Shown here: positions 5,101 through 39,531 of the stretch, piece by piece
How positions within the stretch are numbered: the first letter of the stretch is position 1
Layout: each line of letters begins with the position of its first letter
From: Nemertoderma westbladi
Lineage: Eukaryota > Animalia > Xenacoelomorpha
Length of the DNA: 39,531 bases
Assembly (NCBI GenBank): GCA_032718475.1
Contig: JAUCBJ010001716.1
Span: forward strand, 1-39,531
Direction: 5' to 3'
The notes under the pieces: generated by a model
Database searches by the model: none
The model's input: the letters and a program-made list of their open reading frames with translations, nothing else
Told to the model about the DNA's origin: nothing
Made by a program: the position numbers and the translations under genes

Positions 5101-5807
5101 ATACTACCCCACGTTTCTAAACTATCTGGAATGTAATCAGGGGGAAGTAGATTACTAAAATCAGGTGTATCGATGCCGTCAAATTCTATGAAATCTGGTC
5201 TACAGGCAGTTCTAGCATTTAAATCACCTACTAAAATCACGTCCCCTTTATTACTATAGCAACCAATACCCTTTTCGATAGTATCAAAAAGAGAAATACA
5301 ATCGGCCACGTGTACTTTACTACTCGACGGAGGTATGTAGGCAGCACAAATAATAAGATCTTTATTTAATCCTAGTAATTCTTTATTTAATTTAAACCAA
5401 CGAATGTCCTCCCGAGAAAATTCTTCTAGCATTGTTATACCACTTGCATATTCATTGCGGACATAAACAGTCAACCCCCCACTAAATCGCTTTGCCCTGC
5501 TATGCTTGAATTTTCTCGGATAGTTAAAAGACATATAACCAACAATTTCTATATTTGCGGAACAGGTTGGATTTAGCCAAGTTTCAGCGCAGATAAATAT
5601 GTCAGACAGGGCAACGCGAGAATGGAAGTCTGGTTCCGCTAGGCACGACAAAAGACCTTCAACATTAAGGAAATCTACTATAAAATGTAAATTGTTAGGT
5701 AGGACTACCGAGGACCTGGTAATGTTGGAGTTAAAATCAGTTTGCTCTGAATAGTTGTTAGTTAATCCGGATGTGGAGGAGCGTCCTCTATTAAATCCGA
5801 TGGTGTA
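2133..5807 (-). CDS. LINE ORF2: APE endonuclease + reverse transcriptase + C-terminal CCHC zinc knuckle
   Basis: Endonuclease motifs FLNVEGL, AETW, YIPP, GDLNAR, IDY and SQH. RT motifs YRGISLL, QAGFR, FIDLQKAFD, GVRQGECLSP, LLFADD and YLG. C-terminal CPVC..ESEYHFLLEC. The frame is open from 5807 (after TAA at 5810-5808) to 2133 with no ATG before the first endonuclease motif; the ORF-track start at 5651 is a TTG inside the domain. Confidence 0.93.
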   Translation of the reverse strand, partial: YTIGFNRGRSSTSGLTNNYSEQTDFNSNITRSSVVLPNNLHFIVDFLNVEGLLSCLAEPDFHSRVALSDIFICAETWLNPTCSANIEIVGYMSFNYPRKFKHSRAKRFSGGLTVYVRNEYASGITMLEEFSREDIRWFKLNKELLGLNKDLIICAAYIPPSSSKVHVADCISLFDTIEKGIGCYSNKGDVILVGDLNARTACRPDFIEFDGIDTPDFSNLLPPDYIPDSLETWGSIPKIRVNKDSVFNAYGRRLLDLCKSTGLRIANGRVGQDKGMGNFSFYSHCSTRGVIGRSAIDYVLARTNLLNIVTEFIISPQNIFSQHCVISFSIRRINLQQPVYEFSGAAAGTESRDSKSHALHVKHKHKWDLKHELKFKNNIDSDHTKIQLDSIVDKILECEFTQSTIDTIVDDFNKVLLDATYSYETKQNSVDVSDHKNLFSHPWYTPECAENKYIFRRALNRWKNSSSPDDHIILVNSRSAYSKSLRRAKYEYKLKQSNKLLSVKSCDSKKLWKLLKSAAGNTSNNTSGICLDKLENHFRKLNNTSEFEFTDIGYIPPENSNVNLSREIFENFLSEPFCEAEMNNAINRLKRGKAAGPDELDTNIFILGCEHLSPIITALFNAVLYSGIFPSQWALADLIPIYKNKGNRADANYYRGISLLSVLGKLFTAAINARLQWWEDAFGIIIDSQAGFRPGYRTTDQLFILSNLITQYLNKSKGCKFYCAFIDLQKAFDMIDRSALWFKLNALGFSGKVYKIIKSMYAAAKTRVIWGDNMSDSFNCLVGVRQGECLSPFLFVLFINDLEAELSKGNATGVDVGLFKLYLLLFADDILLLANTVAGLQASLDTLGCYCTFWGLTVNLTKSNIVIFRQGGTQAAHETWTYKGVGMKVVPHYTYLGITFTSTGKFIKAQEILTEKANKSYYTLCRYMNSFPNIGFDLKRHLFNSLIKPILLYGSEVWGFTKGRDTEKLQLKFLKNVLGVKTSTPDFIVYGETGVFPLTIDRTIGIIKFWLRLLSLPSYRLVKRVYLISVEGLNSQRVPNWTSGVRDTLNNLGFSWAWEAQSVPNGREFLAKVRDTLQSQYIQNWWSTLENSPKGDFYVKDTFRTEPYLIVLKNYPTLKRTIASFRCTSHRLKIEEGRWYNIPRLNRLCPVCNLGRIESEYHFLLECPIYSSLREQYLPPQYSRFPSMYKYRRILQYTDPTIVKNLSLFLYNAFSLRSIILGQN

Positions 5808-5983
5808 TTATACGTGTTGTTGCCCATGGGATGACCTTCAGTGGATGAACCCGTTTCTGGGTTACCGCTAGTACTTGGTAGCCCATAGGTATTATTTGAC
5901 GGTATGGTTTTTCTTGCGATCTCCCATTCTGGGATTCCAGAATTGGACTGTGAAATTCCAGATATGGCTGTTTCGGCAGTACC

Positions 5984-7888
5984 TTAGCGAAGTACTATTT
6001 TAGGTACAGCTGTGGCAGGGACAAGAGACTGGAGCGACTCACTAGCTACATGATTGTTTGGCATCTGGTGGTTAATTATTTCACAATCCTCTATATTGAG
6101 TGAAATAGTTCTATTTCTACCTGTAACTACAGAATCTACTGGTTTTGTGGCTGACTCCTCATCCACGCTAATATCTAGTACATCGAACCTATTAGATACA
6201 GGTATACCCGGAGATGTTCTATCTAGCATGGGCGTACTAACTACATTACCGGTGCCGCCTACTACGGTCCAAGTACTACTATTTGCTACAGTATCCCCTA
6301 GAGAAATTGGTGAAACATTTTGAACAGTAGCCAATACTACACCAGTGCTGCTGTACTGGTGGGCTGCGCCACCATTAGTATCAAAAGTTTCACTTTGACG
6401 GGAACTATTGGGTCTGAGAGATACACCAGTCGAGACATTGTTAGTAAGTGATGTGGATGTTAGTGGGTTAGAGTCAGAATTGTTAAAATGAATTGAGTTA
6501 TATGGACTGATACAGCTATAATGAATGAAGTTACTGTTAGTCGGGTTATTATTTGTTGTGATGCTACCACCATTAGCATTAACATTGAGACTAGTACCGG
6601 TAGATGAGTTGTTAAAATTACCAAAGCTATTAACATTACCACAGTTAGGAACCAGTGCAGTTCTTTGGATGTGATGATAACTGGGGTTATATGGTTCGAA
6701 ATGATGTTGAGGTTGGTAGTAGGCCATGTTGTTCGTTGATGAGTTGCCGAGGTTGCGATATCGTAGAGGTTGAGATATTCCGGAATATGGGTGACGAGCC
6801 AAGTTTGGAGCACATTGACTGGATACACTGGGATTAATATTAATAATGTCTGAGAGCCTCACATTAGGATTCTCGTAAACTTCCCATCCGTTTATTTTGG
6901 TGCCGTTTAAGTACAGGTTATTTCCCCGCAACGAGTTGGTTACACCAGCGCGTCGGGCTTCCCGCGATAAACGTGATAGTGTATCACGCTGTTGTCTGAG
7001 CTCATAGGGGAGATCTTCAAGAAACTTTAAAGGCGAATCTCTCAACAGGTTACGACCTGCTGTAAGGACGGCGTTCCTGGTCTTTAGACTTAAAAATTCG
7101 ACTTTAATGGGACGTTTAGAGTTCGGTTTTATCGCGCCGATCCAGAATGCTCGTTCGATATTCAGCTGAGACGATATTTGTAATTTAGTAGTTATAATTT
7201 CTGCAATTAGAGCTTCAACAACCTCACCTCGATTCTCCACTGCCCCAGTAAGAAGTAAACAACGACTGGAGTTCTGCTTCTCCGATTCAACGTGGCATCT
7301 ATGGAGACGTTGTATATTCGATCTATTGGTTTGAATATCTCCTGCTGCCTTCCCCAATGCAAGGTTTAGCTCGTCAACACCGGCCTTGATATCCGGAATC
7401 ATTTCTAGGTAGAACGATAAACCCGGTTGGCCTATTGTCGGACCAGTGCGAGTGTCACTACGATCGCTGAATAGGCTTCCATGGACTGGTGGGGTGCACG
7501 GATAACCATGGTTTTGGGTTTGCCACCTAGTGTTTTCGAAACCTGTGGCGCTGGAATCCGAACCTGCCAGCCTCTGGGCGGCATATTGCTGGGGAAACTC
7601 GGATAGACGTTGACCCACCTGTGGAGGGTTGGGCGAATCATTGCTTGTGACACGTGGGCGTTTGTGAGAAGGCTTTCCGAGGCAGGGACCGTTACCGGAA
7701 GTAGGCCCTCTTGTACCAGTAGACCAAACGGGAAATGACGATGTAGCTAGTGTACCGGTATTTGGTATGAAAATAGGTTCATTTATTATTATCTGGGAGT
7801 TATTAGCTTCGATAAGTTCAATTTGAGTCGCCTCTCCGTAGCAGACGGAACCATCTAGCATATTAGTAACCCCGGTATTTGTATTCAT
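5984..7888 (-). CDS. LINE ORF1 nucleic-acid-binding protein (L1-ORF1/Transposase_22-like coiled-coil, RRM and CTD core)
   Basis: Core segment SRCLLLTGAVE...LNIERAFWIG...KRPIKVEF...FLEDLPYELRQQR...LYLNG, flanked by low-complexity S/N/T-rich regions and positioned directly upstream of ORF2. The same frame stays open past the 5984 stop until 5762. Confidence 0.82.
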   Translation of the reverse strand: MNTNTGVTNMLDGSVCYGEATQIELIEANNSQIIINEPIFIPNTGTLATSSFPVWSTGTRGPTSGNGPCLGKPSHKRPRVTSNDSPNPPQVGQRLSEFPQQYAAQRLAGSDSSATGFENTRWQTQNHGYPCTPPVHGSLFSDRSDTRTGPTIGQPGLSFYLEMIPDIKAGVDELNLALGKAAGDIQTNRSNIQRLHRCHVESEKQNSSRCLLLTGAVENRGEVVEALIAEIITTKLQISSQLNIERAFWIGAIKPNSKRPIKVEFLSLKTRNAVLTAGRNLLRDSPLKFLEDLPYELRQQRDTLSRLSREARRAGVTNSLRGNNLYLNGTKINGWEVYENPNVRLSDIININPSVSSQCAPNLARHPYSGISQPLRYRNLGNSSTNNMAYYQPQHHFEPYNPSYHHIQRTALVPNCGNVNSFGNFNNSSTGTSLNVNANGGSITTNNNPTNSNFIHYSCISPYNSIHFNNSDSNPLTSTSLTNNVSTGVSLRPNSSRQSETFDTNGGAAHQYSSTGVVLATVQNVSPISLGDTVANSSTWTVVGGTGNVVSTPMLDRTSPGIPVSNRFDVLDISVDEESATKPVDSVVTGRNRTISLNIEDCEIINHQMPNNHVASESLQSLVPATAVPKIVLR

Positions 7889-9286
7889 ATTGTTTCTTCT
7901 GGTGAGTTCAGTATTACTCGATTACTGTATACTATATCAATAACAGAATACAGAATAATAAATAATAATTGATAATAATAATAATAATCATGTATATTTC
8001 TTCTAGTACTGTAGTACAGTAGTAGGCCTTGGTACCGATACAGCAGTATAGTACAGTAGTAGGCCTTGGTACAATATGCCTTGGTACAATACTGTTAAAT
8101 AACTTGTTTAGATTATTATAAACATTTCAGCATTTAGTCAATTTGCATTAGCCTCAACTTTTTTAGTCCAATTGTCCAATCCGTACTAAATTCGTTATTC
8201 CTGTATTCTGGTATTCTATGCTACGAATTTAATAAAAATCTAGGTGAACTGTGAACACACCCCCCCCCCCCCCCCACCCCCCCTTCTGCCGGTACAATAT
8301 AGTACAAAAGCCTGAAAGCTGGTTACAGTGTCAATAGCGGCCTTCTGGCAGTCTGGCCTTGGTTCTGTGGTCAAGTATGAAAGGATTGATAGAACTTTGA
8401 TTCATGTAGATTTTGACTGGCATACTGCATACGTAGTAAAAGTTAGTAGGCTACTGTTTCGTTTGTATAATACAATACAGCAATATAATGCAATACGGCT
8501 GTACGGTAATACTTAGCTGCTATGCTGTGGGTGGATATAAACTCGTATAACTGAGACTCGAAATTTAGGTCATAGTCTTAAAGTAGCCCATAAACTGAAG
8601 GATAGACTGTATACTACACCGTGTGCTAGTGCTACGTGCTACGTATAGACTACGTTATGTAGGCTATGTACAGATGTATGTATGCCTCTTTCTGGCAACT
8701 TTATTGAGTTATCCTTCTGCAATTTTGCGTGCTTGGCAGCTTGGGACCGTTTTTTATGTTTTTCTAACACAAAAAGCTGCATTAAACTCATAAGATTGTA
8801 TTATTGTCATACTTTCTGACAGCTAGATTAGTCATAATCTAAGAATTTCCGCTAAATTTATTAGATTATGACTTAGGGTTAGGCTGTTAGGGTTACATGA
8901 CACTTTTAATTAGGGTTGAGGCCTGACAAACTAACCGTAAACAAAATAATAAACCAAACCATCTTTGAAAGAATAAATGGTTATGATAGGCCTATATCTG
9001 TATATGGCATGACAATACAGCGATATGCCTGCCTGGATATGACAGTGTACCGGTAACTGTCTGACTAAAGGCAGATAGGCAGAAAGGTGGTTTACAACAG
9101 TGGCCTACAAGTAACAAAAAGTGTGGGTACCGGAAACTGCATTGAGCCAATGCTTTGGTGGTGCAATCTGATTAATTCTCTATGTTCTGTTCACCATGAG
9201 CTTTTATACCTGACATAATCGGATTATTGATCTAAAATGTACACCCAGTGAAAATCTGAAGACCAAACAGCCAAACCTGCAAACTG

Positions 9287-10550
9287 GGGTGCTGGTCACC
9301 TCGCCTCACTGCCACTTCGCCGCAAGTCATCTCGCTGCAGATAATGTGCGGCGAGGTGTCTTGCGGCGAGGTGTCTCACTATAAATGCAATTTCGCCGCA
9401 TATTATCGGACACCTCGCCGCAAGTCAATATAAATCATTTATTTCTATATTTACACGAAAGCCTACTTATGGCATTGGACATTATTATAAGAAGAAATAA
9501 AATAATACGGTAAGGTTTGTTGTTATATTATAATTACTGTATTATATTACATGTTATCATAGATACTGTACAGTAAGAGTATTTGAGTAACGTATTAGAT
9601 TATAGTAAAATACGGTCATAAAGATTCATAGAGGACTATGAATAACATATAATGAGTATTCTGACATAGAGGTCAGATCAGAATACGGTCATTTAAGTTG
9701 TTTCCATGTCATTGATTACGGTACTTTGCAGCGTTACGAGTAATTTTCCAGAACACTGTTAAGTTGGCATAATGTACTGTCAGACTGTAACAATAACTAT
9801 TTACGTACATGTACAATGTACTAAGTACGGAAACGGAAGTAAGGCAACATAATGTAATAAGGTTAATACAGTAATACTGTATGTTTATGTTAAATCTTAA
9901 TTACAAATGTAATGTTCTTAGTGGATTGATATACTGTACTTATATTTGTTGTCCAGTTATCAGACACTTTTTTTGTTAAGAGCAAAATTATGGTCGAATT
10001 ACATTTCAAATTAATTTTCATGACATTAATAATAATCAATAATATTGCATTAAATATTATAATTTTTTTTAAATTTCTTACATTACCTATTCTATTTATT
10101 TGTGTGGAATTAATATCGCACTACCAAATCGCCAGGACAAATTTAAAGAAATTCCAACAAATAATTATTTATTACATGGGAAAAAAGTAGAACTTTTTTC
10201 ACTATTCTCGAGGCATTTTTAATATGTTACTCAAATACCGGTACTCTTACTGTATCTATAATAATACAGTAATTATAATAGAACAACAAACCTTACTGCC
10301 TTACCGTCTGACCGTATTATTTTATTTTATTTTATAATACATAATGTCCAATGCCATACTGCCATAACTAGGCTTCCCTGTGTAAATATAGAAATAAATG
10401 ATTAATATTGCCTTGCGGCGAGGTGTCCGATAATTTGCGGCGAAATGGCATTCACAGTGAGACACCTCGCCGCAAAGACACCTCGCCGCACATTATCTGC
10501 GGCGAGGTGACCTGCGGCGAAGTGGCAGTGCGGCGAGGTGACCAGCACCC
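9287..10550. mobile_element. Mutator-like (MULE/foldback) non-autonomous element with ~310-bp TIRs
   Basis: Ends GGGTGCTGGTCACCTCGCC / GGCGAGGTGACCAGCACCC. Long imperfect inverted arms (~9287-9597 vs ~10219-10550) contain repeated GCGGCGAGGTG. Perfect 9-bp TSD TGCAAACTG at 9278-9286 and 10551-10559. Confidence 0.9.
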
Positions 10551-11975: not shown

Positions 11976-13616
11976 ATGGCAACGTCTCACAATGGTGTTC
12001 TCAATTTTAATATTGGAGTTTTGGGTCACGTAGATAGCGGGAAAACCTCGTTGGCTCGGTCGTTAAGCACGGTTGCTTCGACGGCTTGTTTCGATAAAAA
12101 CCCCCAAAGTCAGGCGCGAGGTATCACCCTGGACCTGGGATTCTCGTCCTTTACCCTTCCCATTCCGCCCCACTTGGATTCCACTGACTACCATTCCCTC
12201 CAGTTAACGTTAGTAGATTGCCCGGGCCACGCCACTCTCATCAAAACAATAATAGGTGGCGCTCAGATTATCGATCTTATGCTGCTTGTTGTTGACGTTG
12301 TCAAGGGAATGCAGACGCAAACAGCGGAATGCTTAATCATCGGTGAAATTACTTGTAAGAAAATGGTTGTAGTTTTAAATAAAATTGATTTACTTCCGGG
12401 AAATAAACGCAACTTGGTAGTAGAAAAGATGACAAAGAGAATTCTTAAAACATTGGAGACAACGACTTTCCGAGATTGCAAGGTGGTTCCTATAGCAGCT
12501 AGCCCTGCGGACAATGATCCCGCCTTGGGTATTGATGATTTAATCGAAACACTAAAGGGCGAAGTCTACCTGCCGCGTAGAAGTGGTGATGGCGACTTTA
12601 TATTCTCGATAGACCATTGTTTCGCTATTAAGGGTCAGGGCACTATCATGACAGGAACTGTAACCAGCGGATCTGTTAAACTACACGATGTCGTTGAAAT
12701 TCCCGCCATGAAAGAATCTCGGAAGGTGAAATCGATGCAGATGTTTAAGGAGCCGGTTAGTTCGGCTGTCCAGGGAGACCGACTGGGTCTCTGTGTTACT
12801 CATTTCGATCCTAAACTAATAGAACGGGGTTACCTCGCATCCCCTGGGGCTGTGCTAACGTTGTATGCCGCCGTTATTAAACTTAATCCTATTCGCTTCT
12901 TCAAAGGTTCTATTAACAACAGGTCGAAGTATCACATGACCGTAGGCCACGAAACAGTGATGGGTAAACTACAACTGTTCTCATCCTCCTTAGAAGATTA
13001 TCAGTTTGATTTGGCTAAAACTTATTCGTTTCAAGATGAATTCATTCGCAACGATGAAAGTGAAATTAATAAGGTGGATTTTGTTTTGATTTATTTTGAT
13101 AAAGCCATCATTTGCCCTAAGGATTCTATTGTCATCGGTTCTAAACTCGATACCGATATCCATAGCAACACATGTAGATTGGCCTTCTACGGGACGATAA
13201 TTCAGCCAATCACCGATAAGAACTACAAGGAGACGTTCCTTCCTCTGCTGAAGATTTACAAAGTTAAGAACCGCCAAGGAACGGTGGAACGAATTCACGA
13301 CGAATCAACGTTAATAGGGAAGAATTTATTTAAGAAAGAAACGAATATTCAGAACTTTATCGGATTTAAGGTAACTCTGTCCAGTGGGGACTCCGGTTAT
13401 ATTGAGTCGGGTTTCGGGCAGTCGGGCAAATATAAACTTCGTATTCCCGCTGGGATATCCGAGGCTATTAGAAATGAGTTTATTAACGTCAGCGGGAAAC
13501 GCAAGGCTAAGAAAGAACTGGAAGATGGAACGGCGTCGCAGGAACGGAAGCCTGTAGTCGTTTCGTTAACCTTTAAACGCTTTTTGTTCGATCCTGAGAA
13601 GAAAATGATTCAATAA
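11976..13616 (+). CDS. EEFSEC: Selenocysteine-specific translation elongation factor (eEFSec/SelB), single-exon CDS
   Basis: NFNIGVLGHVDSGKTSLAR, ACFDKNPQSQARGITLDLGFS, DCPGHATLIKTIIGGAQIID, NKID, DHCFAIKGQGT, SKLDTDIHSNTCRLAF and the eukaryotic C-terminal domain (GFGQSGK; FKRFLFD). 546 aa, uninterrupted. Confidence 0.97.
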   Translation: MATSHNGVLNFNIGVLGHVDSGKTSLARSLSTVASTACFDKNPQSQARGITLDLGFSSFTLPIPPHLDSTDYHSLQLTLVDCPGHATLIKTIIGGAQIIDLMLLVVDVVKGMQTQTAECLIIGEITCKKMVVVLNKIDLLPGNKRNLVVEKMTKRILKTLETTTFRDCKVVPIAASPADNDPALGIDDLIETLKGEVYLPRRSGDGDFIFSIDHCFAIKGQGTIMTGTVTSGSVKLHDVVEIPAMKESRKVKSMQMFKEPVSSAVQGDRLGLCVTHFDPKLIERGYLASPGAVLTLYAAVIKLNPIRFFKGSINNRSKYHMTVGHETVMGKLQLFSSSLEDYQFDLAKTYSFQDEFIRNDESEINKVDFVLIYFDKAIICPKDSIVIGSKLDTDIHSNTCRLAFYGTIIQPITDKNYKETFLPLLKIYKVKNRQGTVERIHDESTLIGKNLFKKETNIQNFIGFKVTLSSGDSGYIESGFGQSGKYKLRIPAGISEAIRNEFINVSGKRKAKKELEDGTASQERKPVVVSLTFKRFLFDPEKKMIQ

Positions 13617-13955: not shown

Positions 13956-14831
13956 CGTACCACTAATACGTACCACTAACACGTACCACTAACACGTACC
14001 ACTAACACGTACCACTAATACGTACCACTAACACGTACCACTAACTAACACGTACCACTAACACGTACCACTAACACGTACCACTAATACGTACCACTAA
14101 CACGTACCACCAACACGTACCACTAACACGTACCACTAATACGTACCACTAATACGTACCACTAACACCTACCACTAACACGTACCACTAACACGTACCA
14201 CTAACACGTACCACTAACACGTACCACTAATACGTACCACTAACACGTACCACCAACACGTACCACTAACACGTACCACTAACACGTACCACCAACACGT
14301 ACCACTAACACGTACCACTAACACGTACCACTAACACGTACCACCAACACGTACCACTAACACGTACCACTAACACGTACCACTAATACGTACCACTACC
14401 ACGTACCACTAACACGTACCACTAACACGTACCACTAACACGTACCACTAATACGTACCACTAACACGTACCACCAACACGTACCACTAACACGTACCAC
14501 CAACACGTACCACTAACACGTACCACTAACACGTGCCACCAACAAGTACCACTAACACGTACCACTAACACGTACCACTATCACGTACCACTAACACGTA
14601 CCACTAACACGTACCACTAACACGTACCACTAACACGTACCACTAACACGTACCACTAACACGTACCACTAACACGTACCACTAACACGTACCACTAACA
14701 CGTACCACTAACACGTACCACTAACACGTACCACTAACACGTAGCACTAACACGTACCACTAACACGTACCACTATCACGTACCACCAACACGTACCACT
14801 AACACGTACCACTAACACGTACCACCAACAC
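13956..14831. repeat. 13-bp minisatellite (CGTACCACTAACA)n, about 67 copies
   Basis: Head-to-tail tandem array with recurrent single-base variants (…TAATA, …CCAACA) and no spacers. Confidence 0.97.
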
Positions 14832-17097: not shown

Positions 17098-17304
17098 GGG
17101 TGTGTGATCATTGGTGCGGGTGGGACAGCGCGGGTGTGTGATCATTGGTGCGGGTGGGACAGCGCGGGTGTGTGATCATTGGTGCGGGTGGGACAGCGCG
17201 GGTGTGTGATCATTGGTGCGGGTGGGACAGCGCGGGTGTGTGATCATTGGTGCGGGTGGGACAGCGCGGGTGTGTGATCATTGGTGCGGGTGGGACAGCG
17301 CGGG
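17098..17304. repeat. 34-bp GC-rich minisatellite, 6 identical copies
   Basis: Unit GTGTGTGATCATTGGTGCGGGTGGGACAGCGCGG repeated in perfect tandem. Confidence 0.96.
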
Positions 17305-17827: not shown

Positions 17828-18268
17828 ATGTCTACATTATATTTTGGTCCGCACATTATAATTTCCCCCCGTATCGTATTCTACCGAACTGCTTTATCAT
17901 TTGCCTTTGTGAACCGGAAACAAGTGGTTCCCGGACATGTCCTGGTATCGCCTATCCGTCGAGCCCAAAGGTTCAACGAACTCACTCCGGACGAGGTCAG
18001 TGACCTTTTCCTAGTCGCGCAAAGGGTATCTTCCATCATGATGACTCACCACTCGGCGAGGTCAATGACCTTAGCCATACAGGACGGGCCAGACTCGGGA
18101 CAAACTATACCCCATGTCCATATACACGTGTTGCCAAGGAAACCCGGGGACTTTAATAGCAACGACGATGTATACAAACATTTGGAATCTCACGATAAGA
18201 AAGTTGTTGAGTGGAGGATTGAAAGTGATATGATTCATGAAGCAGAAACATTAAAAGAGTATTTTTGA
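17828..18268 (+). CDS. FHIT: Bis(5'-adenosyl)-triphosphatase (fragile histidine triad protein), single-exon CDS
   Basis: FG.H.I, SFAFVNRKQVVPGHVLVSP, AIQDGPDSGQT and the HIT motif HVHIHVLPRKPGDF. 146 aa, full length for a stand-alone Fhit. Confidence 0.96.
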   Translation: MSTLYFGPHIIISPRIVFYRTALSFAFVNRKQVVPGHVLVSPIRRAQRFNELTPDEVSDLFLVAQRVSSIMMTHHSARSMTLAIQDGPDSGQTIPHVHIHVLPRKPGDFNSNDDVYKHLESHDKKVVEWRIESDMIHEAETLKEYF

Positions 18269-18739: not shown

Positions 18740-19774
18740 ATGTCCCACAAGGAGAAACGCGCCCTCAAAAGGAAGCACAGACAAGATGAACTGATAAAGC
18801 AACTGGAAAGACAAGGTAATGATTCCATGGAGCCGATTCCCAGTCCTCCCGCCAGGGGGCGCACATACACGGTTAGCATCGCCCTGCCGGGGTCCATCCT
18901 GGACAACGCCCAGTCTATCGAGCTGCGGTCCTACCTGGCGGGACAGATCGGCCGAGCCGCGGCGATAATGAACGTCGACGAGGTGGTTGTCTACGACGAA
19001 TCGGCGTCCGGTACCGGCGGAATATCCGGCGAGTTTACCGGGATCGGTCGTCACGGAAACGGGAACGTGCAACTGGCCCGGATCCTCCAGTACATGGAGT
19101 GTCCGCAGTACTTGAGGAAACTTCTGTTTCCGGTGCATCGCGACCTGCAGTACGCGGGTCTACTCAACCCGCTGGATACCCCGCACCACTCGCGAGCCGA
19201 TGAACCGAGCGCTTACCGAGAGGGTCTCGTTGTCAATAAGGCCGCAAAGGCCGGTAGAAGTTTAGTCAACTGCGGTATGGGAGTCGATGTGGAGGTGGAT
19301 AAACCGTTAGCTCCCGGTACGCGGGTCACAGTTCGTATGAAGAACCCCGGAGTTCACCAAGGTGCTAAGGTCCGCGGTGTTGTTGTGGGTTCTAGCACCC
19401 CCCGGCGGGAGGACGGTATATACTGGGGCTATTCTGTGCGTCTCGCAAGCAGTCTAAGTGACGTCATATCCGGTTGTTTGTATAAAGAACCCTATGACGT
19501 AACTCTAGGTACATCAGATAAAGGTGAAAGTTTGGAGGACTTAGAATTATCTCCCTTTAAACATTTACTAATTGTTTTCGGTGGTATTAAAGGAATTGAG
19601 GCGGCGTTAGCAGCTGATGGAAGTCTAGAAACTGGCGAACCGCGCGATATATTCGACCGGTATTTGAACACGTGTCCCGATCAAGGTTCCAGGACTATTC
19701 GTACCGAGGAAGCTATATTGGTAACACTTGCTGCTCTCAGACCTAAAATACTGGCTGCTAATAATACTGGCTGA
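18740..19774 (+). CDS. SPOUT1: SPOUT domain-containing methyltransferase 1 (C9orf114/CENP-32 homolog), single-exon CDS
   Basis: GRTYTVSIALPGSILDNAQSIELRSYLAGQIGRAAAIMNVDEVVVYDE, LQYMECPQYLRK.LFP.H.DLQYAGLLNPLD.PHH, GIYWGYSVR, and YLNTCPDQGSRTIRTEEAIL. Confidence 0.96.
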   Translation: MSHKEKRALKRKHRQDELIKQLERQGNDSMEPIPSPPARGRTYTVSIALPGSILDNAQSIELRSYLAGQIGRAAAIMNVDEVVVYDESASGTGGISGEFTGIGRHGNGNVQLARILQYMECPQYLRKLLFPVHRDLQYAGLLNPLDTPHHSRADEPSAYREGLVVNKAAKAGRSLVNCGMGVDVEVDKPLAPGTRVTVRMKNPGVHQGAKVRGVVVGSSTPRREDGIYWGYSVRLASSLSDVISGCLYKEPYDVTLGTSDKGESLEDLELSPFKHLLIVFGGIKGIEAALAADGSLETGEPRDIFDRYLNTCPDQGSRTIRTEEAILVTLAALRPKILAANNTG

Positions 19775-22255: not shown

Positions 22256-25054
22256 ATGGAAAGTGAACCCCTAACATCGGATGATGAGCACCTAATAGTT
22301 ATAATCCATGAAATGGCCGGTTTAGAGACACAAAATAACTCAATCATTCCCACGTCCCAATCAGTTGGTTCCCAGGCAACCATTAACCAATCAGTTGACC
22401 GACCAACCCCGTCCATGCAACTCTACTCCGGCACGGGATTGGATATTGGTTCTGTGACGTCAGCGTCCGCCCCATCCCCGGGGGTCATTCAGCACACATC
22501 TACTGCGGCGCGGACCCAGCGACCCCTCCAACCGATGCTACCCAGGTCGTTGCTAACCGGACCCAAAGCGAAACCCAAGCGGACGAGAAGCGTATCGGAT
22601 ACGCCTCTATCGGAGAACGATTTACCGGCTTCCCACGCGACGAGCGCCTTTCCCAACCTGGTTGCCATGCAACCCGGTTACCAACCGTTAACTTTCGTCC
22701 CCTCGTTACCCGCTTGGTTACAAAATCCGCCGCTTGGTGGCGTCGTCCCCGATCCAAAGTCCGGTTCGGTTATCGTCAAGCACGGCGGCTCCCTATTGGC
22801 TACCGCTTGTGATTCAACCAATCCAGCTGTGCAGGGATTGGGGAGCGCTTACACCGCAGGTAACCAATCACTGCCCTGTATAATCGCTCCCAAACGGGCG
22901 TCCATCCACTCCGAAGCGCTGACTCACCAACAGCTGTTGATACAGACAGTTCCGCACCTGAGTGACCCCCCCGTATTGGCTGCAGATGACATGGAACCCG
23001 CCACCGCGGGCGCGGTGAAATCAGCAGGTGTGGTGGGACCAGCTGGTGCGGTGGGACCAGGCGGTACGATGGGGCCAGCTGGTGTGGGGGGACCAGCTGG
23101 TGCGATGGAACCAGGCGGTACGATGGGGCCAGCTGGTGTGGGGGGACCAGCTGGTGCGATGGGACCAGGCGGTACGATGGGACCAGGCGGTACGATGGGA
23201 CCAGGCGGTACGATGGGACCAGCTACTATTATAACAAATAGTAAATCGCATATTCCACCACAAATAGTCAAGATGGAGGTTGAATTGGAACCAGAAACAT
23301 CAACCCCAATTAGTTCCATCGCTTATAACCACGTGAGGACTAATCCAGCTAGGGGCCGGTTATCAGACGCGACAGTGATGTCAGGTGGCCTAATACAGCA
23401 GGAAGTATTACCTAACCTGGGACAGGAGGCCCTGGCCGATAGACTGATGGGGATGGGGAGTCAATTGGGGGCTGTTGATGTAGGGTCTAGTGACAAAGTG
23501 GTAAATAGATCAACTGTTTCCCAACCATCAGCGGTGGATGTGACGCCCACCTCCAAATATGTGACTACATTCATACAACCAGTGGCACCCTACCCCCAAC
23601 CAGTGGCGCCCTACTCCCAACTGGTGGTTCCCACCCCACTCCCTCAGGCTCCCGCCCCACTCGGTGACTTCCATTCACCCGGTCACTCAACTGCCAGTAA
23701 ACCCTCCAGAGACCCCGTATCCACCTCCCACCCCGAACCAGTTCTGTACTCCCCTCCGGGTCTCAACGGATTGCAAACTGAAGTAGAAGTAGCTGGTAGG
23801 GAGGGGGTGTCCCCTGGGGAGTCAGTACCCACAGAATCGGCTAAACCAGCTGCTAAATCGAGACGAAAGAACCTCCAAGGGTCCGTCAACTGGGACGACC
23901 AGCAAGGAAACTTTCAGTTTCAGTCAAAGAAGTTTACTGAGGCCATTCCACCGCTGGCTCCCCTTAGCGACCATTCTGTGTACACGTATAATCCGTTGTC
24001 CCCACGGAAACAACGTCAGGCGGCGCGACGCATATCAAAAGCGTCATCAGAGCGTAACGATAGCAACGACCAATCGCAATCCGTCGTTACTCCAACCGAT
24101 ACTCAGTTTATCCAACCAATGGAAATGCAGCCCATTAGCAGCATCGTGCAGTCCCAGTTGGGTGTCACAGAACCATTGGCTGAGGTCGACCTAACTCAAT
24201 CGACCAATCAGCTGCCATACAGCGGGGACCTCTCGGCTGTGGTTGTCTCCGAGGATGAACCCCGCAGTAGCGACGCGAGTAAACGAATCCGCGTTGAGGT
24301 CGACTCACTACCTCCGACTATCAGTAAACCCCTGTCCCCCTACGCGTTGTTCTTCAAAGACATGCAGCCGACTATTAAGGACCAATCACCGAACGCCACG
24401 TTCGGAGACGTCTCTAAGCTGGTCGCAAACCTCTGGGAGAATCTTAGCGCGGCCCGGAAGCAGGAATATAAACGACGAACGGATATCGCCAAGGCGGAAT
24501 ATCTGCAGATGTTGGCAGAAACCGGTGTTTCTAACAGTAGTGGAGCGCAGAGCTCGAGTTATACCGGAAGTGACGCCACTCAGAGTCACCAGTATGACGT
24601 CATTAGTGACTTTAGCACTGTCTACCAATCGGACGGGTCGCAAGGGAATAAATTACAGACACCGGAAGTTCCGACTACTCCCGGTAAATCCATACTGAAA
24701 CCGTCGTCCAATAGAAACTCCGTTACTATAGCGACTAGACCTCCGCCGCCGCCTCCCAAGACAGTCCGTAAACCGGTGATTGGGTTGTCCGGTCGGCCGG
24801 TGTTGGCGTCTGGGAGGGGCGCACCGCCGGTGCTGCCGGATAAACGAGCGGTGACCCCGCCACCGGTGCCGGTTATGTGTATCTGCGTTGGTTGCGAGAA
24901 GGAGGCGGTGGAGGACTCGTATTGGGACAACGAGTACTGCAGTCCCCAGTGCGTAGTGGACCACTGCAGGTGGACCTTCCAACGGTGGGTCACTGAGACG
25001 GCTGGCCAACCCGCCGCTCCGCTTGTGTCTAATAACGCCACAACTTCCGCTTGA
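22256..25054 (+). CDS. TOX4: TOX-family HMG-box protein (TOX4-like), single long coding exon
   Basis: TOX-type HMG box [57 protein letters not shown] and TOX4-type C-terminal Cys motif C..GC......WDNEYCS..CVV.HCR..F..WV. AATAAA lies immediately after the stop. Small upstream exons are possible (GTAAGT/GTGAGT donors near 20122, 20325, 21704). Confidence 0.9.
23027..23224 (+). repeat. Coding 18-bp-unit minisatellite inside TOX, encoding a Gly-X-Y run
   Basis: GGACCAGCTGGTGCGATG / GGACCAGGCGGTACGATG-type units give 22 triplets, 21 of which start with Gly. Confidence 0.9.
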
Positions 25055-27376: not shown

Positions 27377-28451
27377 CACTATATTTGCCCAATTATGTTG
27401 TTAGTGAACTTTTGACAATATGTTTTCACTTTAAAATAACAAATCGATAATAAGACATTAAAACTCTATTGTCTGATTGTACACGATTAAATGCTTAGTT
27501 TTGAATTATTATTATGGTGGGCTTGAGCTATGGGGAAGGAAAAGAGGGGTGGGGGGGGGGGGGGGGGGGTGTTGTAGGGTGATGGGAGATCTTACAGAAC
27601 TATTAAGGCATTTACAAAACAACTTTTGATGAGAAGCCGTAAAATGACAAAACTTAGTTGTTCAAAAAATTAAGACTTGTAAAAATACGTGACACATACA
27701 ATGTACCCTAAGCCTCTATATACAGTATGCAGTATACATCTGACCGTTGATTATTAATCTGTTGATTTAATGTTGAATTAAATTGTGTTTTCTACAATAT
27801 TCCTGAACCCTAATTTTATTGTTCTGGTTCCTTAACCAGCCTCTGCTCTGTAAGCTGTACCCTACATCCTTACTAACCTGCCTACACTACAAATAGGGAT
27901 AGCATTTACCCCTGTTAGTTGGTGTTGTGGGAAGGTAACGTTGCAAGGATTCCAAATCTGTATCAATACTGAATTTTGTTAGAAAATTGCTAAGACTTTA
28001 TTGACAGTAACGATGTTTTGACAAGCTGTCTCTATTTTTATTTTTATTGTTTATATTCATTCTGTCATTGATAGACTTTGCTTTGCATTTCTTTCACTTT
28101 TGAGTTTAACTATTCGGCTTACTACTAAAATGTTGTCTCTGTCCGAATGTGCATAAAATACAGTGTTGTTCTTGTGACCCTGTTGCTTTACTGTACTGTG
28201 CTACTCTGTAACTACAGAACTACAGCACTAGCACTACTAACCAGCTAACTGTACTACTGCATACTGTACTACAGCTGTACAGTACACAGTACTATCGGTT
28301 CACGGTTTACACTTTACAGTACTACCGGTACATACTGACAGTACGGTAGTTTACAAATTTAGGCGGTTAGGCCTACGTTCAGACGTTCTTTTTATTTCGT
28401 ATTTTGAATTTCACTAGTCAGAAACTGCAAAATTAACATTACAATTTGCCA

Positions 28452-28979
28452 ATGCTCACTGGCAATGCAGGCCGACCCAAGTTCCACACTACTACGTCTC
28501 AACGACGCCCTCCCGCTATCGGCGGCCTAGTGGACATAACCGCGAGCCAGCGACTTGCACCCGCCGGACCCGTCACTATCTACCAAGGCGACCCGCCCTC
28601 CCCCGCCAATCTATCCCCCGCTAAACCCGGACAGCCGACCCTGGACGGGGGAGTGATGGCGACGGGATCCCGGGGCTTCATACCCGGGTCCCATGAGTCC
28701 CCCAAGTCCGATGAGTTCACCGCGAAGCACCGACAGCGCTCGAACCGAGGTCACACCGCTCCCACCAACCCACCAATCAGCAAACAGCATTCGGAGTGCG
28801 TCAACTGTCTGTATGAGATGTGGCAGACAGCGTTGACAGCACATGCAGACCCTCCGGATATGTACCTAGACAAGTCGCCGTCACCCGGACCTCCACACCT
28901 GCGTAACTTTAAATCATTCGATTTGGAGGAGTGGTGGGGCCAGCAGCAGCTTCCTCCCAGTCTGAGAGAGGAAAGTTGA
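28452..28979 (+). CDS. MCRIP: MAPK-regulated corepressor-interacting protein family (MCRIP/FAM195), single-exon CDS
   Basis: C-terminal FAM195 signature HSECVNCLYEMWQ ... Y ... PHLRNFKSFDLEEWWGQQ (compare human HEENVRF..EAWQ ... PRLQNFVPIDLDEWWAQQ), with an N-terminal G.PK.....RR.P. The first ATG is at 28452 (the track start at 28446 is TTG). 175 aa. Confidence 0.85.
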   Translation: MLTGNAGRPKFHTTTSQRRPPAIGGLVDITASQRLAPAGPVTIYQGDPPSPANLSPAKPGQPTLDGGVMATGSRGFIPGSHESPKSDEFTAKHRQRSNRGHTAPTNPPISKQHSECVNCLYEMWQTALTAHADPPDMYLDKSPSPGPPHLRNFKSFDLEEWWGQQQLPPSLREES

Positions 28980-31284: not shown

Positions 31285-31610
31285 CTATTTTTTCACAATT
31301 TTGGGAAATATATATTCCTTCCAGAAGCTACTACTACGTTTAAGTAAACTTTGCATGTATATGGAATCATATGATACTTCAACTATTTTCACTTCGCCAT
31401 TTATTTCAAAAGATGGATCTGCGACGCAAAACAAGGCCCATTGTTTATTGCAAAGATGCATTTGAAGTTGGATTTGTGACATGAATTTAGCGCTTACGAT
31501 ATTCGATTGTGTAAGATAAGATTTTTGAATGGCATGTTTTGATGTTGGACATTTTACTTCTACCACATGCGTTGGTGTAATGGCATCTGAAATGGCATCA
31601 AAAAATAAGA
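31285..31610 (-). pseudogene. YqaJ/lambda-exonuclease-like (PD-(D/E)xK) domain, C-terminal portion
   Basis: ISDAI....VVEVKCP (degenerate SPDG...EIKCP), SQIQLQMHLC....ALFCV, and F(W)KEYIFP. The N-terminal half is absent from this frame. Confidence 0.8.
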
Positions 31611-32447
31611 TTTTGTGGTATTTTATAAAAACACTAGCTACAATATGAAAACAGTACATACCATTGAAAACACTAGCTACCACAAACATTTGTTTTTATT
31701 TTCTTTAAAACATTTTTTTTCACATGTAACTAGCCAAAATTTGTCAAGAACATAAACCTATAGCCCAAAACATTATGTTTTGGTATTTTTTGGTATTTTG
31801 ATATTTTTGGATGTCAAACCAAAAACAGCTATTATGAAAGGCAGAATAATGGTGACACGGGCAACACTAGTACCAGTAACACTTTACAGTGAACTGACAA
31901 AAAATCTAAATAATTTCCATCTAGTGCTAATCTACCCATCCCGCATTGTTCGCTGTAAAAACAATAAAAAAATAGATTAATGAAACGCCTGGAAGTATTT
32001 AGCTAGCTATATTTATTTTTAGCTACACCCATCATTATGTCTAAACAGAAAGTTAAAGTAAAATTAGGTGCGGCATATTCGTTCAGCCTCAGCATGATGT
32101 ACAGTTACCACTGGTACCATCATTTGCATTGACCATTTTTAAAATTCAAAGACTCACATTTCAATAGGTAATAATTGGTGACTGGTGTGCAGGATCGAAA
32201 TGGAGTGGATTCAATGGGCAGGGTGCCTATGTAGCTCTCTCAATCTCTCAAGGGTTACAAAACTTTCAGGACTGTACTTATTATCAGCATTGGATGCCAA
32301 TATTGTGAAACAATTTAAGCCAACCAGTGATCAAACAGCAGAAATTGAAATGTTACAGAAACTCTAATGATCTCTGTTTCGAGATCAGTGCATACATATT
32401 AGATGTCATATTGGTAACAATATTATACTGTATATAATATAACATGT

Positions 32448-35900: not shown

Positions 35901-36547
35901 CAACTAGAAGAACTGTGTTCTCTGGTCGATGGGACAATTATCAGTAAGTACCGCCTGTAATTATTTGTTTAGTTTACTATTATTTATTACCACATTGTTG
36001 TCTTGTAATTTCCATGGTGAACATTTTAAAAAATGTATCTAAACGTTTTTGACTTTAGTTGTTCTCAATCAGAGGTGTTCCTCAATTTAACTATAATTAA
36101 ATGAACTAATTAATGTTAATTATTTTATTATTAAATTGCACCTTTTCACGCAAATAAATTAGTATACAAATATATAAACTCCAGCTACTTTTTTCACTTA
36201 CTGGTACCACTACCTATCAATTTCAATAACTCATCGCGTTACTCAAGGTGATAACAACATCCAATGAAATTAGACGCAATCCCCATTAACAAAAAATTTC
36301 AGGATACTACACAGATTCACACATGATACCATGCATGTGTGCCGTTGCAAACTGAGCTACTCGGCCACGATAAATTAAACATCAAATTTAGTCCTAATAC
36401 TTCAAAATGAGTAGGCCTACCGGTACGCAATTATCGTAATAATAAATGTTACAGATCAGTCGGACTGAACGCTGCCTTAGCGACGGCTTTTAACCCTTTG
36501 ACGCCTGAAGCTGCAATTGAAACTACATGCTAGGGCAGTTACGGACA

Positions 36548-36885
36548 GTTGCCTATATAGGCATCAATAGACATTTCCTATTTAGGCAACATTTACAATG
36601 TAGTGTTGCCTTTATAGGTAATAGTGATGTATCTTTACTGCCTAATTAGGCAACATGTGACAGTCAGAGTTATTGATTATATTTTTTAAAATAAGGATAT
36701 TAATTTGGCGCTGAATATTGTTACTTTAATAAATACAACAAGGTATAGCCCTGTAATTGATACTGGAACCAATTTTATTTACCTGTTTGTCTGGACGCAA
36801 TGGTGTCTTTTTGTGAGGTGATGTCACTCATGTTGCCTAAATAGGGAACCTCAAAAAATTGGTTTGTGATGCCTATTTAGGCAAC
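36548..36885. promoter_or_regulatory. Cluster of six perfect CArG boxes (CC[A/T]6GG) in GTTGCC-W6-GGCAAC palindromes
   Basis: CCTATATAGG 36552-36561, CCTATTTAGG 36577-36586, CCTTTATAGG 36609-36618, CCTAATTAGG 36641-36650, CCTAAATAGG 36836-36845, CCTATTTAGG 36872-36881. Confidence 0.8.
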
Positions 36886-37449
36886 TACATACAGACATAT
36901 ACATACTGATATACTTTGATTATAAGAAAACGTTTTGGAGGATTGAGTTCAGTCAATCATTTGATCTTTTTTTACTCTGTTACCGATTTCAGGATCTAAT
37001 TTCTTTTAATTTACTTCCAGTACCTATACTCTTAAGACTGTCATGTCATAGTGCGGATTCATATTGCGTAGTAGCGTAGTAGGCCTACAGTTGTAGCAGA
37101 GCAGCGCAACAGTAGGTATGCCATGTCAAGATACTAGTAGTTATTATTTAGGCTGCTTTTAACGCTCGGATTGGCAGATTGTTTCTATTTCGAATTTTTA
37201 ATAATTGAGTCCGAGCGTTTCTGTATTTAGTATTGTGAAATTTTATACCTTCACTAATTCAGTCAATATAGGCTAGGCGACTTCATTTCATTGCAAGTGA
37301 TCAAAGACATATATGTAGTTGCTATTCAGTCTTAAATCAGTTAGTATATACTGTATTAATACATTTATCTCACCATCCAACTGTATATTACACACTATAG
37401 TTAGTCAGTCACATCTGTATTTAACCTAAATATATATAACCTAAACTAA

Positions 37450-39120
37450 ATGGAATTCGAAATTGGGAGCGATACCGATGATGATTGTAATGATTCTGGC
37501 CTGATGTTGATGAATAGATTGTGGCAAAATACACTACCCGAACTTAATATACCGCCGCACTACTACCCAGTTGATCCACAACCCAAAACACCTCCATTAT
37601 CCGACTGTGATATCCCATCTCCGATTCTATCGGATTTCGATGACGAAGGTAAAGATAAATCCTGGTTTCCTGTGAGGAATGATGGCAAGGGCATATGTAG
37701 GGGTGGTTATGGTGTTGGACATGGTGGTTGTGATGGAGGAGGGGACAATGACATTGGGGTTATCACAGGGGGCATTGAGGGTAGGCCTATTGTAGTTGGT
37801 GCAGAAGGTATTTGGGGAGGTGATATTGTCGGACACAGTAGTTGGAACTAACGTCATTGGGGGTGTTATTGGCAATGGGGAAATAGTAGTTGGAACTGCT
37901 GAGGACATTGGGGGTGATATTGAGAATATAGTAGTTGGAACTAAGGACATTGGGGGTGATATTGAGAATATAGTAGTTGGAACTGAGGACATTGTTGGTG
38001 ATATTGAGAATATAGTAGTTGGTACTGAGGACATTGGGGGTGATATTGAGAATATAGTAGTTGGTACTGAGGGTATTGGGGGTGACGTTGGGGGGCTTTG
38101 GGGGTGAGATTGGAAGTGGGGCTGAGAACATCGGACATAAAAAGAGAAAACTGAAACGCAAGACGCGGGATCAACTGACTTTCAGTGCTGATAAAAAGCG
38201 CAATAGAGATTCAACTCTTTGTAAACGAAAGTCAACCTTAAAATCTAAGTCTGATGATTTGGATATTACGACTCAAGTAAAAACAGACTTAATTTTTATG
38301 ACCTCAAAGATTTCAAAGACAACCAAAAAGGAAGTTTTCCATTTAGAATTTTATTCTTCGCATGATAAACACGCTACCAATACAAGTATTACAAGTCTTC
38401 TTTCTGGCCTAAATCTTCCCCTATCTACTATTAGCAAACAAGAGTTCTCAACTAAGGGAGAGGCACGACAGGCTGTGGGCCGCATACTTATGGGAGATGA
38501 GTCTGCAGGCTATGATGGTGGTGGAACTGCATGTGATTCGCATGTGGATGCACCACAGCCACTAGTGACACCAACAAAGGCGCCATATAGTGCAATGCCA
38601 CGTGTGTTTCCTATTCCATCCCAAGTATGTAGGATTTGTGGGGAACTTAGTGGAGGAGAACGGGATATGGGAGGCTTGTGGTTTGGATGCCGTGGTATTG
38701 AAGGTAAATGTTCTGCATGGGCACATGCCACTTGTCTTGGTGTTGGAAAAAATACAACAGCTATTACGGATAAATTGGAATGGAACTGTGCTGTTCATTT
38801 ATCAGGGATCAGCACAACACAAAGCCGTGTTACACAGGTAATATCTAATAATCACGAACAAATGTGTCGGATCTGTGGGCATCAGTATGGTGTCATTGGG
38901 GACATCGCTGGCCTTTGGCTAGGTTGTCAAGGGGGTGATAGCGTCTGTAAACAGTGGGTCCATGCCCACTGCTTAGGTTTTCCAACTTTACGGAAAGGGA
39001 GTGAAACAGAAAAATCATTAGTGTGGGAATGCAAAGAAACACTCGAAATTACCTAATGTCCCTGCTTTAACCAAGAGAGGTAGAGGGCGTCCTGCAAAAA
39101 GACAAATAAATAATTTGTAA
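37450..39120 (+). pseudogene. Frameshifted gene (or gene with assembly indels) for a ~555-aa protein: acidic N-terminus, Gly-rich 14-aa repeats, MADS-box-like domain, two PHD-like fingers, AT-hook
   Basis: ORFs 37450-37851, 37796-38107 and 38061-39056, plus a tail to 39120, join into one protein after removing three single bases (G ~37831, G in the G6 run 38090-38095, A ~39033). MADS-like R..T..KRK..L..K..DL...T; two CxxC..W.GC....C..W.H..CLG...W.CxxH fingers; terminal KRGRGRPAK. Confidence 0.75.
37882..38086 (+). repeat. Coding 42-bp tandem repeat (EDIGGDIENIVVGT), about 4.8 copies
   Basis: Units start at 37901, 37943, 37985, 38027 and 38069. Confidence 0.93.
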
Positions 39121-39531
39121 TCAACTAATTGAGTTTTATAGTTTAATATATAGGCCTACTTGTTGATTTTAAAACATTATTTACCTTTGTAACCTCACTA
39201 TGCAATGATTTAAATGCAATAGTTAAGAATTTAATCAGTGAATCATACTTTTAATATTTTGTTTATCTTAAACTCAATTTAAGTATCAAACTCAATTCGA
39301 GACAGGGGAGCTGGGAGGGACTTGACACAAATCACACCTCGATGAATTAAATATATAATCTCGGCAAATTAGCAATGTTAATTATCAATTAAGGGAAAGG
39401 AGCAGGTTACAGTGGTATGCTATTCTACAATAAACGAAAGTCAATAGCAAAGGCTACAGTGGCATATTATTCTAACCAAAACAATAAATTAAATACATAT
39501 ATTCAGGTTACAGTTTCATTTTTGAGAGTAA

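Follow-up and report, generated by a model that had tools for sequence, protein, structure and literature searches.

A broken MADS-like/PHD/PHD gene beside a CArG-box array in Nemertoderma westbladi, a candidate accessory gene of a DNA transposon

The locus and the gene product

The window analyzed here is a 39,531-nt stretch of DNA from Nemertoderma westbladi (contig JAUCBJ010001716.1 of assembly GCA_032718475.1). It contains five conserved animal genes, each present as one uninterrupted ORF: eEFSec (11976–13616), a HIT/FHIT-like protein (17828–18268), a SPOUT-type RNA methyltransferase (18740–19774), a TOX-like HMG-box protein (22256–25054) and FAM195 (28446–28979). All five are intronless, indicating an intron-poor genome region. 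The repeats in the window include a LINE on the minus strand (2133–7921), likely young, with two long open frames of 645 and 1,224 aa (RVT_1, E = 2.3e-32); a MITE-like element (9287–10550) with inverted arms of about 300 nt, 86–95% complementary in their best stretches; a 13-bp satellite of 67 copies (13956–14831); and a perfect 34-bp array of 6 copies (17098–17304). A YqaJ-like nuclease fragment on the minus strand (31288–31695, sub-cut-off Pfam match, E = 5.4e-4) is probably a remnant of another transposon, and 20 short ORFs between 29 and 35.5 kb matched no relevant family. The window ends inside a very high-copy repeat (39356–39531), whose depth in the short-read runs X1, X2 and X3 exceeds that over the gene described below more than 1,000-fold.

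A single-exon gene occupies 37450–39120 of the plus strand. It encodes 562 aa in its open haplotype and is broken three times in the window, where its reading frame is split into pieces at 37450–37851, 37796–38107 and 38061–39056, plus a tail. An earlier note on this DNA had proposed that three frame repairs would join these pieces into one gene, and three net −1 corrections do unite them into one reading frame that runs to a TAA at 39118–39120. The N-terminal part contains a 42-nt tandem repeat of about 6 copies (37819–38085, plus strand), encoding an acidic, Gly/Ile/Val-rich 14-aa unit. No single contig spans the repeat stretch 37928–38035, so the copy number was adopted from the window.

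Downstream of the repeat, 38193–38300 (plus strand) encodes a divergent MADS (SRF-TF)-like domain. It matched PF00319 over profile positions 4–39 of 48 with 22.4 bits (E = 8.4e-5), a score short of the 26-bit cut-off. In the ESM Atlas, the two best clusters for this segment were SRF-TF (scores 0.83 and 0.82, SRF-TF accounting for 24% and 53% of their members), and the 10 best family-bearing matches were unanimous for SRF-TF, at scores below 0.9 that make them a lead only. The whole ORF as query gave no usable match in the Atlas, PDB sequence searches found no MADS chain, and no Pfam family was found after the core at 38373–38609, where SRF- and MEF2-type proteins would have a SAM or MEF2 domain. 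The composition of the region is 44% Lys/Arg. A MADS fold is made up of a helix, two antiparallel strands and another helix. Single-sequence AlphaFold models made without an alignment had pLDDT values of 36.6 and 49.0; they were too poor for use, and Foldseek matches for the gene product were therefore disregarded. The Pfam and Atlas matches indicate that the gene product likely contains a MADS-type DNA-binding domain, which is not assigned as SRF or MEF2 type (types as in the available part of bioRxiv 10.1101/2023.01.10.523452).

Two PHD fingers follow on the plus strand. Finger 1 (38628–38798, alignment A1) is a C4-H-C2-H variant and scored 26.0 bits with PF00628; finger 2 (38865–39042) scored 24.6 bits. 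Each was scored alone against a curated cut-off of 24 bits, and the long ORF gave a PHD match of 35.2 bits. The fingers share 39% identity. In each finger, as in four PHD relatives, the last of the eight ligands is a His, and the ligands thus depart from the canonical C4-H-C3 set. A profile built from A1 retrieved the PHD chains of KDM5B and SIZ1. The Trp residues of finger 2 align with a Met and a Trp of the Pho23 PHD (E = 0.13), at positions which we take to be those of cage residues, and the tandem fingers are putative readers of the H3 tail. The MADS-like/PHD/PHD architecture described in the earlier note is thereby upheld for both fingers, which fit PHD profiles above the cut-off, while its MADS part has a match that is significant but below the cut-off.

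The protein ends in a basic tail (39073–39102, plus strand), in which an AT-hook had been proposed. Its G-R-P core is present in the window and in run X5, but a G>A change at 39089 replaces the Arg by His, giving G-H-P, in 3 of 4 runs (X1, X2 and X3). The Arg-Gly-Arg-Pro core of an AT-hook is polymorphic across runs and not found in the set as a whole, so the AT-hook was not counted among the conserved parts.

No close homologue was found among 1.84 billion protein representatives. Word-index searches among proteins of similar length, among longer ones and for the PHD region returned no homologue, and scans of metagenome and viral contigs for related loci returned no relative. The nearest protein matches were four lone PHD fragments ending in C-x-x-H, one of them from pearl oyster; these are four of five rows, P0001 having been dropped as a repetitive, spurious match. 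The nearest named PHD relative, P0004, also has a weak RAG2_PHD match. The protein P0006 (275 aa), a cluster mate of P0005, contains one PHD finger ending in C-x-x-H and a basic tail. By eye, a degenerate MADS-like segment precedes its PHD finger, a lead only; this resemblance found no support in Pfam, the PDB or a two-sequence profile.

Frame breaks and haplotypes

Six short-read runs overlap the window, three of them covering most of it, and none is recorded as RNA. Runs X1, X2, X3 and X5 (and X4, with zero cover) were compared as assembled contigs rather than as raw reads. According to their records, X2 and X3 belong to a single sample, and runs X1–X3 come from two studies.

The earlier note had described all three lesions as single-base insertions in homopolymers. 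Comparison with the contigs gives a different picture, and none of the three repairs that it proposed agrees with them. At break 1 (37829–37830, plus strand), the window has TC where the contigs of all three covering runs have a single G; the change from GGGG to GTCGG amounts to a substitution plus one extra base rather than slippage in a homopolymer. Break 2 (38090–38095, plus strand) is a 20-nt deletion in the window between two GGG runs, not an additional G: X1, X2 and X3 (3/3 runs) all carry 20 additional nt at 38092, and X2 has a second allele with 17. Both the +20 and the +17 allele restore the frame. Break 3 (39037–39039, plus strand) is an extra A, missing from X1, X3 and X5 and common to the window and an X2 contig (1,282 nt, depth 208, no gaps). 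Removal of an A near 39033 had been proposed, and this did regain the last ligand of finger 2 past break 3, a His as in finger 1; the extra A, however, is located at 39037–39039, and its removal gives WECKEH and not WECKKH.

Because break 3 also occurs in an independent X2 contig, it is likely a real allele; since X2 and X3 are one sample, both break 3 alleles likely segregate there. X1 in turn has a private extra G at 38930, after which the frame stops within finger 2, and two of its zinc ligands are lost (Cys to Phe and His to Leu). The suggestion that the lesions may all be sequencing errors is not supported, given break 3 in the X2 contig and the separate frameshift of X1. Breaks 1 and 2, which flank the tandem repeat, could still be assembly faults.

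The lengths of the open frame are 562 aa in X3, 541 or 540 aa in X2, 502 aa in X1 and 133 aa in the window. Only X3, whose contigs are open at all three break sites, has a fully open frame (1 of 4 haplotype reconstructions), which bears out the earlier expectation that an intact gene exists. The split frame is a true gene, intact in one of the sequenced copies. The depth of assembled contigs is flat over the gene (63–65 in X3, 33–47 in X1), which suggests a single copy, with no sign of amplification. Among the substitutions that separate the haplotypes, 7 of 18 are synonymous, giving a pN/pS of 0.46 that is indistinguishable from neutral (P = 0.093). The other long ORFs of the window contain no breaks in 12,063 nt, compared with three in the 1,671 nt of the gene (P = 0.0018, assuming uniform breaks and with comparison ORFs chosen for their length).

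The CArG array and the contig fork

Upstream of the gene lies an array of CArG boxes, a new observation that the earlier note had missed. The CArG consensus is CC(A/T)6GG (PMC13293092, in the part available). Six of the nine strict boxes in the window are located in 36552–36881, starting at 36552, 36577, 36609, 36641, 36836 and 36872. The cluster lies about 570–900 bp upstream of the gene, its last box 569 nt before the ATG, and is the sole CArG cluster of the window, within 1 kb of the sole MADS-like ORF found there. Dinucleotide shuffling of the region (n = 5,000) never yielded six boxes (maximum 2), the largest cluster in whole-window shuffles (n = 300) was 3, and none of 20,000 order-4 Markov simulations reached 3 boxes.

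The half-sites of the boxes are highly regular. A-G-G is invariant (12/12), the next base is variable (C in 9), the following base is A (12/12), and a pyrimidine lies two further out in all 12. The spacers between boxes differ (25, 32, 32, 195 and 36), and the centres vary among A/T only. Invariant half-site bases combined with differing spacers and centres suggest that the array resembles a protein footprint more than a plain duplication. Parts of the array also resemble each other in inverted orientation, among them 20-bp arms at 36547 and 36886. The MADS-like domain may dimerize and bind these sites; the link between the putative domain and CArG DNA consists in its co-location with the six boxes.

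The array lies in a CArG-rich 354-bp segment (36534–36887), a candidate long terminal inverted repeat that was delimited by a contig fork and by depth. The contigs of X1, X2 and X3 (3/3 runs, two studies) fork at 36887: the X1 contig stops at 36887, contigs of X1 and X3 begin at 36858, and the X2 branch continues past 36887 with 690 nt unlike the window. At the other side, contigs of X1 and X3 have 28 unmatched letters ahead of 36534. The depth of the segment in X3 is 139, compared with 63–65 for the gene (2.2-fold), and in X1 58, compared with 33–47 (1.3–1.7-fold); in X2 it ranges from 84 to 239, too uneven for copy counting. The segment is likely present twice in the genome. The simplest reading is that there are two copies of the segment and one of the gene, as in an element with two long terminal repeats. 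The fork could also be an allelic insertion at 36887, heterozygous in both samples. No second copy of 36534–36887 was found within the window.

A candidate outer end of the element lies in 36490–36533 (plus strand), either at TTAACCCTTT at 36490 or at TAGGG at 36531. The sequence TTAACCCT occurs once in the window outside 36500–36900. The target of piggyBac elements is TTAA. At 36490, TTAA stands before CCCTTT, consistent with one piggyBac-type end; the site lies 44 nt outside the contig junction at 36534. Elements of the piggyBac type have a 4-bp duplication and CC..GG termini, and Academ elements have an Academ transposase and a duplication of 3–4 or 9–10 bp (PMC10045372). No transposase, second element end or target-site duplication was found in the window, because it ends 411 nt past the stop codon. 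The YqaJ fragment was ruled out as part of the element, being 5 kb outside the candidate end.

Similar palindrome arrays occur elsewhere. A scan for the paired-CArG pattern returned 31 unrelated loci, 4 viral and 27 from metagenomes, and in the DNA fetched around them no relative of the gene product was encoded. A complete 448-kb giant-virus record with a CArG array contained no PF00319 match, and neither did control genomes. Such arrays therefore arise without this gene. In the giant-virus contigs, the same extended CArG palindrome is repeated in tandem (4953–5037 in L001/L003, 332–386 in L002 and 4884–5049 in L004), with periods of 25, 45 and 39 bp.

Origin of the gene

The CArG array and the contig fork point to a mobile-element setting rather than to an ordinary host accessory factor. 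The earlier description of the product as a sequence-specific, chromatin-reading accessory protein is supported as regards MADS-like/PHD/PHD, while the array and the fork would shift it from the host to a mobile element. On balance, we hypothesize a decaying cut-and-paste DNA transposon with two genes, of which this gene is the accessory, DNA-binding one. The segment that holds the array would be one of its long terminal repeats, and the MADS-like protein would have the role of Myb in Harbinger elements.

In such an element, a MADS-like dimer would bind palindromic CArG sites near both ends and bring in, or form a bridge to, a transposase encoded by another gene, much as the Myb-like ORF1 product does in PIF/Harbinger. 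The PHD of RAG2 reads H3 tails for the action of RAG1. The tandem PHD fingers would likewise read histone H3 tails, biasing where or when the element acts, and the gene might be autoregulated through the same CArG sites. Both the transposase gene and the other end of the element would be located past the right edge of the window, or would have been lost. The segregation of loss-of-function alleles would reflect that the host can do without the gene.

An alternative, which we consider rather unlikely, is a host gene for a transcription factor that is specific to the lineage and was perhaps domesticated long ago; it would regulate itself through the CArG boxes as an enhancer, and finger 2 and the tail would be dispensable. 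The gene appears to be single-copy and the host genes of the window are likewise intronless; the contig-borne breaks (38930 and 39037) all fall within finger 2, both length alleles at 38092 preserve the frame, and synonymous changes are in slight excess (7/18). Autoregulation through CArG sites has a precedent in plant PHE1 (PMC13293092, available portion). However, just one of four haplotypes is open, a duplication of the enhancer with sharp edges is required, and the homologue searches did not find an orthologue.

It is less probable still that the array stems from the chance insertion of a palindromic repeat or MITE upstream of a decaying orphan PHD gene to which it has no relation, with the MADS match a Lys/Arg-rich coincidence. 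The sub-cut-off MADS score, the internal inverted similarity of the array, with its 20-bp arms, and the similar arrays elsewhere without the gene are consistent with this, but two methods (Pfam and the Atlas) chose the same family from thousands, and the sole CArG cluster lies less than 1 kb from the sole MADS-like ORF found in the window. Very improbable is the version of the earlier note, an intact conserved gene in which all three breaks are assembly errors: X3 is open, and breaks 1 and 2 are missing in 3/3 runs and lie on either side of a tandem repeat, a setting in which polishing can go wrong. Against this version stand break 3 in the X2 contig, the frameshift and ligand losses private to X1, and the break density, which differs from that of the other ORFs (3/1,671 nt against 0/12,063 nt, P = 0.0018 if breaks are uniform, with ORFs chosen for length).

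The working model of a transposon-borne gene draws on PIF/Harbinger elements (Ping/Pong), in which a separate Myb-like ORF1 encodes a protein that attaches to subterminal sites and draws in the transposase (PMC4055405, text available in part). The likeness consists in a separate, putatively DNA-binding gene near candidate subterminal sites, and is not evidence of membership: in place of Myb, the protein here has a MADS-like domain together with two PHD fingers, the sites are CArG palindromes, and no transposase is seen in the window. RAG-like transposons (RAG1L/RAG2L) are two-gene elements with a PHD finger in the partner gene, and the accessible part of their description contains no mention of MADS (PMC10629977). 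In contrast to them, no kelch domain or RAG1-like gene was found here, and a MADS-like domain is present instead. MADS or SRF is not mentioned in PMC10799480 either. Plant Helitrons hold CArG motifs bound by PHERES1 (PMC6914339, available portion); there, the MADS protein is the product of a host gene, whereas here it would be element-borne. Animal genomes generally have two MADS types, SRF and MEF2 (bioRxiv 10.1101/2023.01.10.523452, in the part available). The gene product resembles SRF and MEF2 in its MADS-like core (Pfam, Atlas) and in the nearby CArG boxes, and differs from them in its sub-cut-off score, in that no SAM or MEF2 domain was detected, in the fused acidic repeat and two PHD fingers, and in the segregation of loss-of-function alleles. 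No published account of a MADS-PHD transposon gene was found in full-text searches, whose coverage does not extend to Repbase Reports and subscription journals.

The gene is real and unusual, and we lean towards regarding it as transposon-borne. With a dense array of textbook sites next to the gene for a MADS-PHD protein, the locus offers a protein-DNA pair open to direct testing. Should the array prove to be a transposon end, a transcription-factor domain would perform end recognition in a two-gene transposon, and CArG enhancers would have a route by which to spread in animals, like that of Helitrons in plants. More tentatively, there may be a third MADS lineage in animals, carried by a DNA transposon that encodes a MADS-PHD-PHD protein of its own and has a long terminal repeat composed of CArG boxes. 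Such an element would grip its ends with a transcription-factor fold, select chromatin with PHD fingers, and seed ready-made SRF-type enhancers across the genome.
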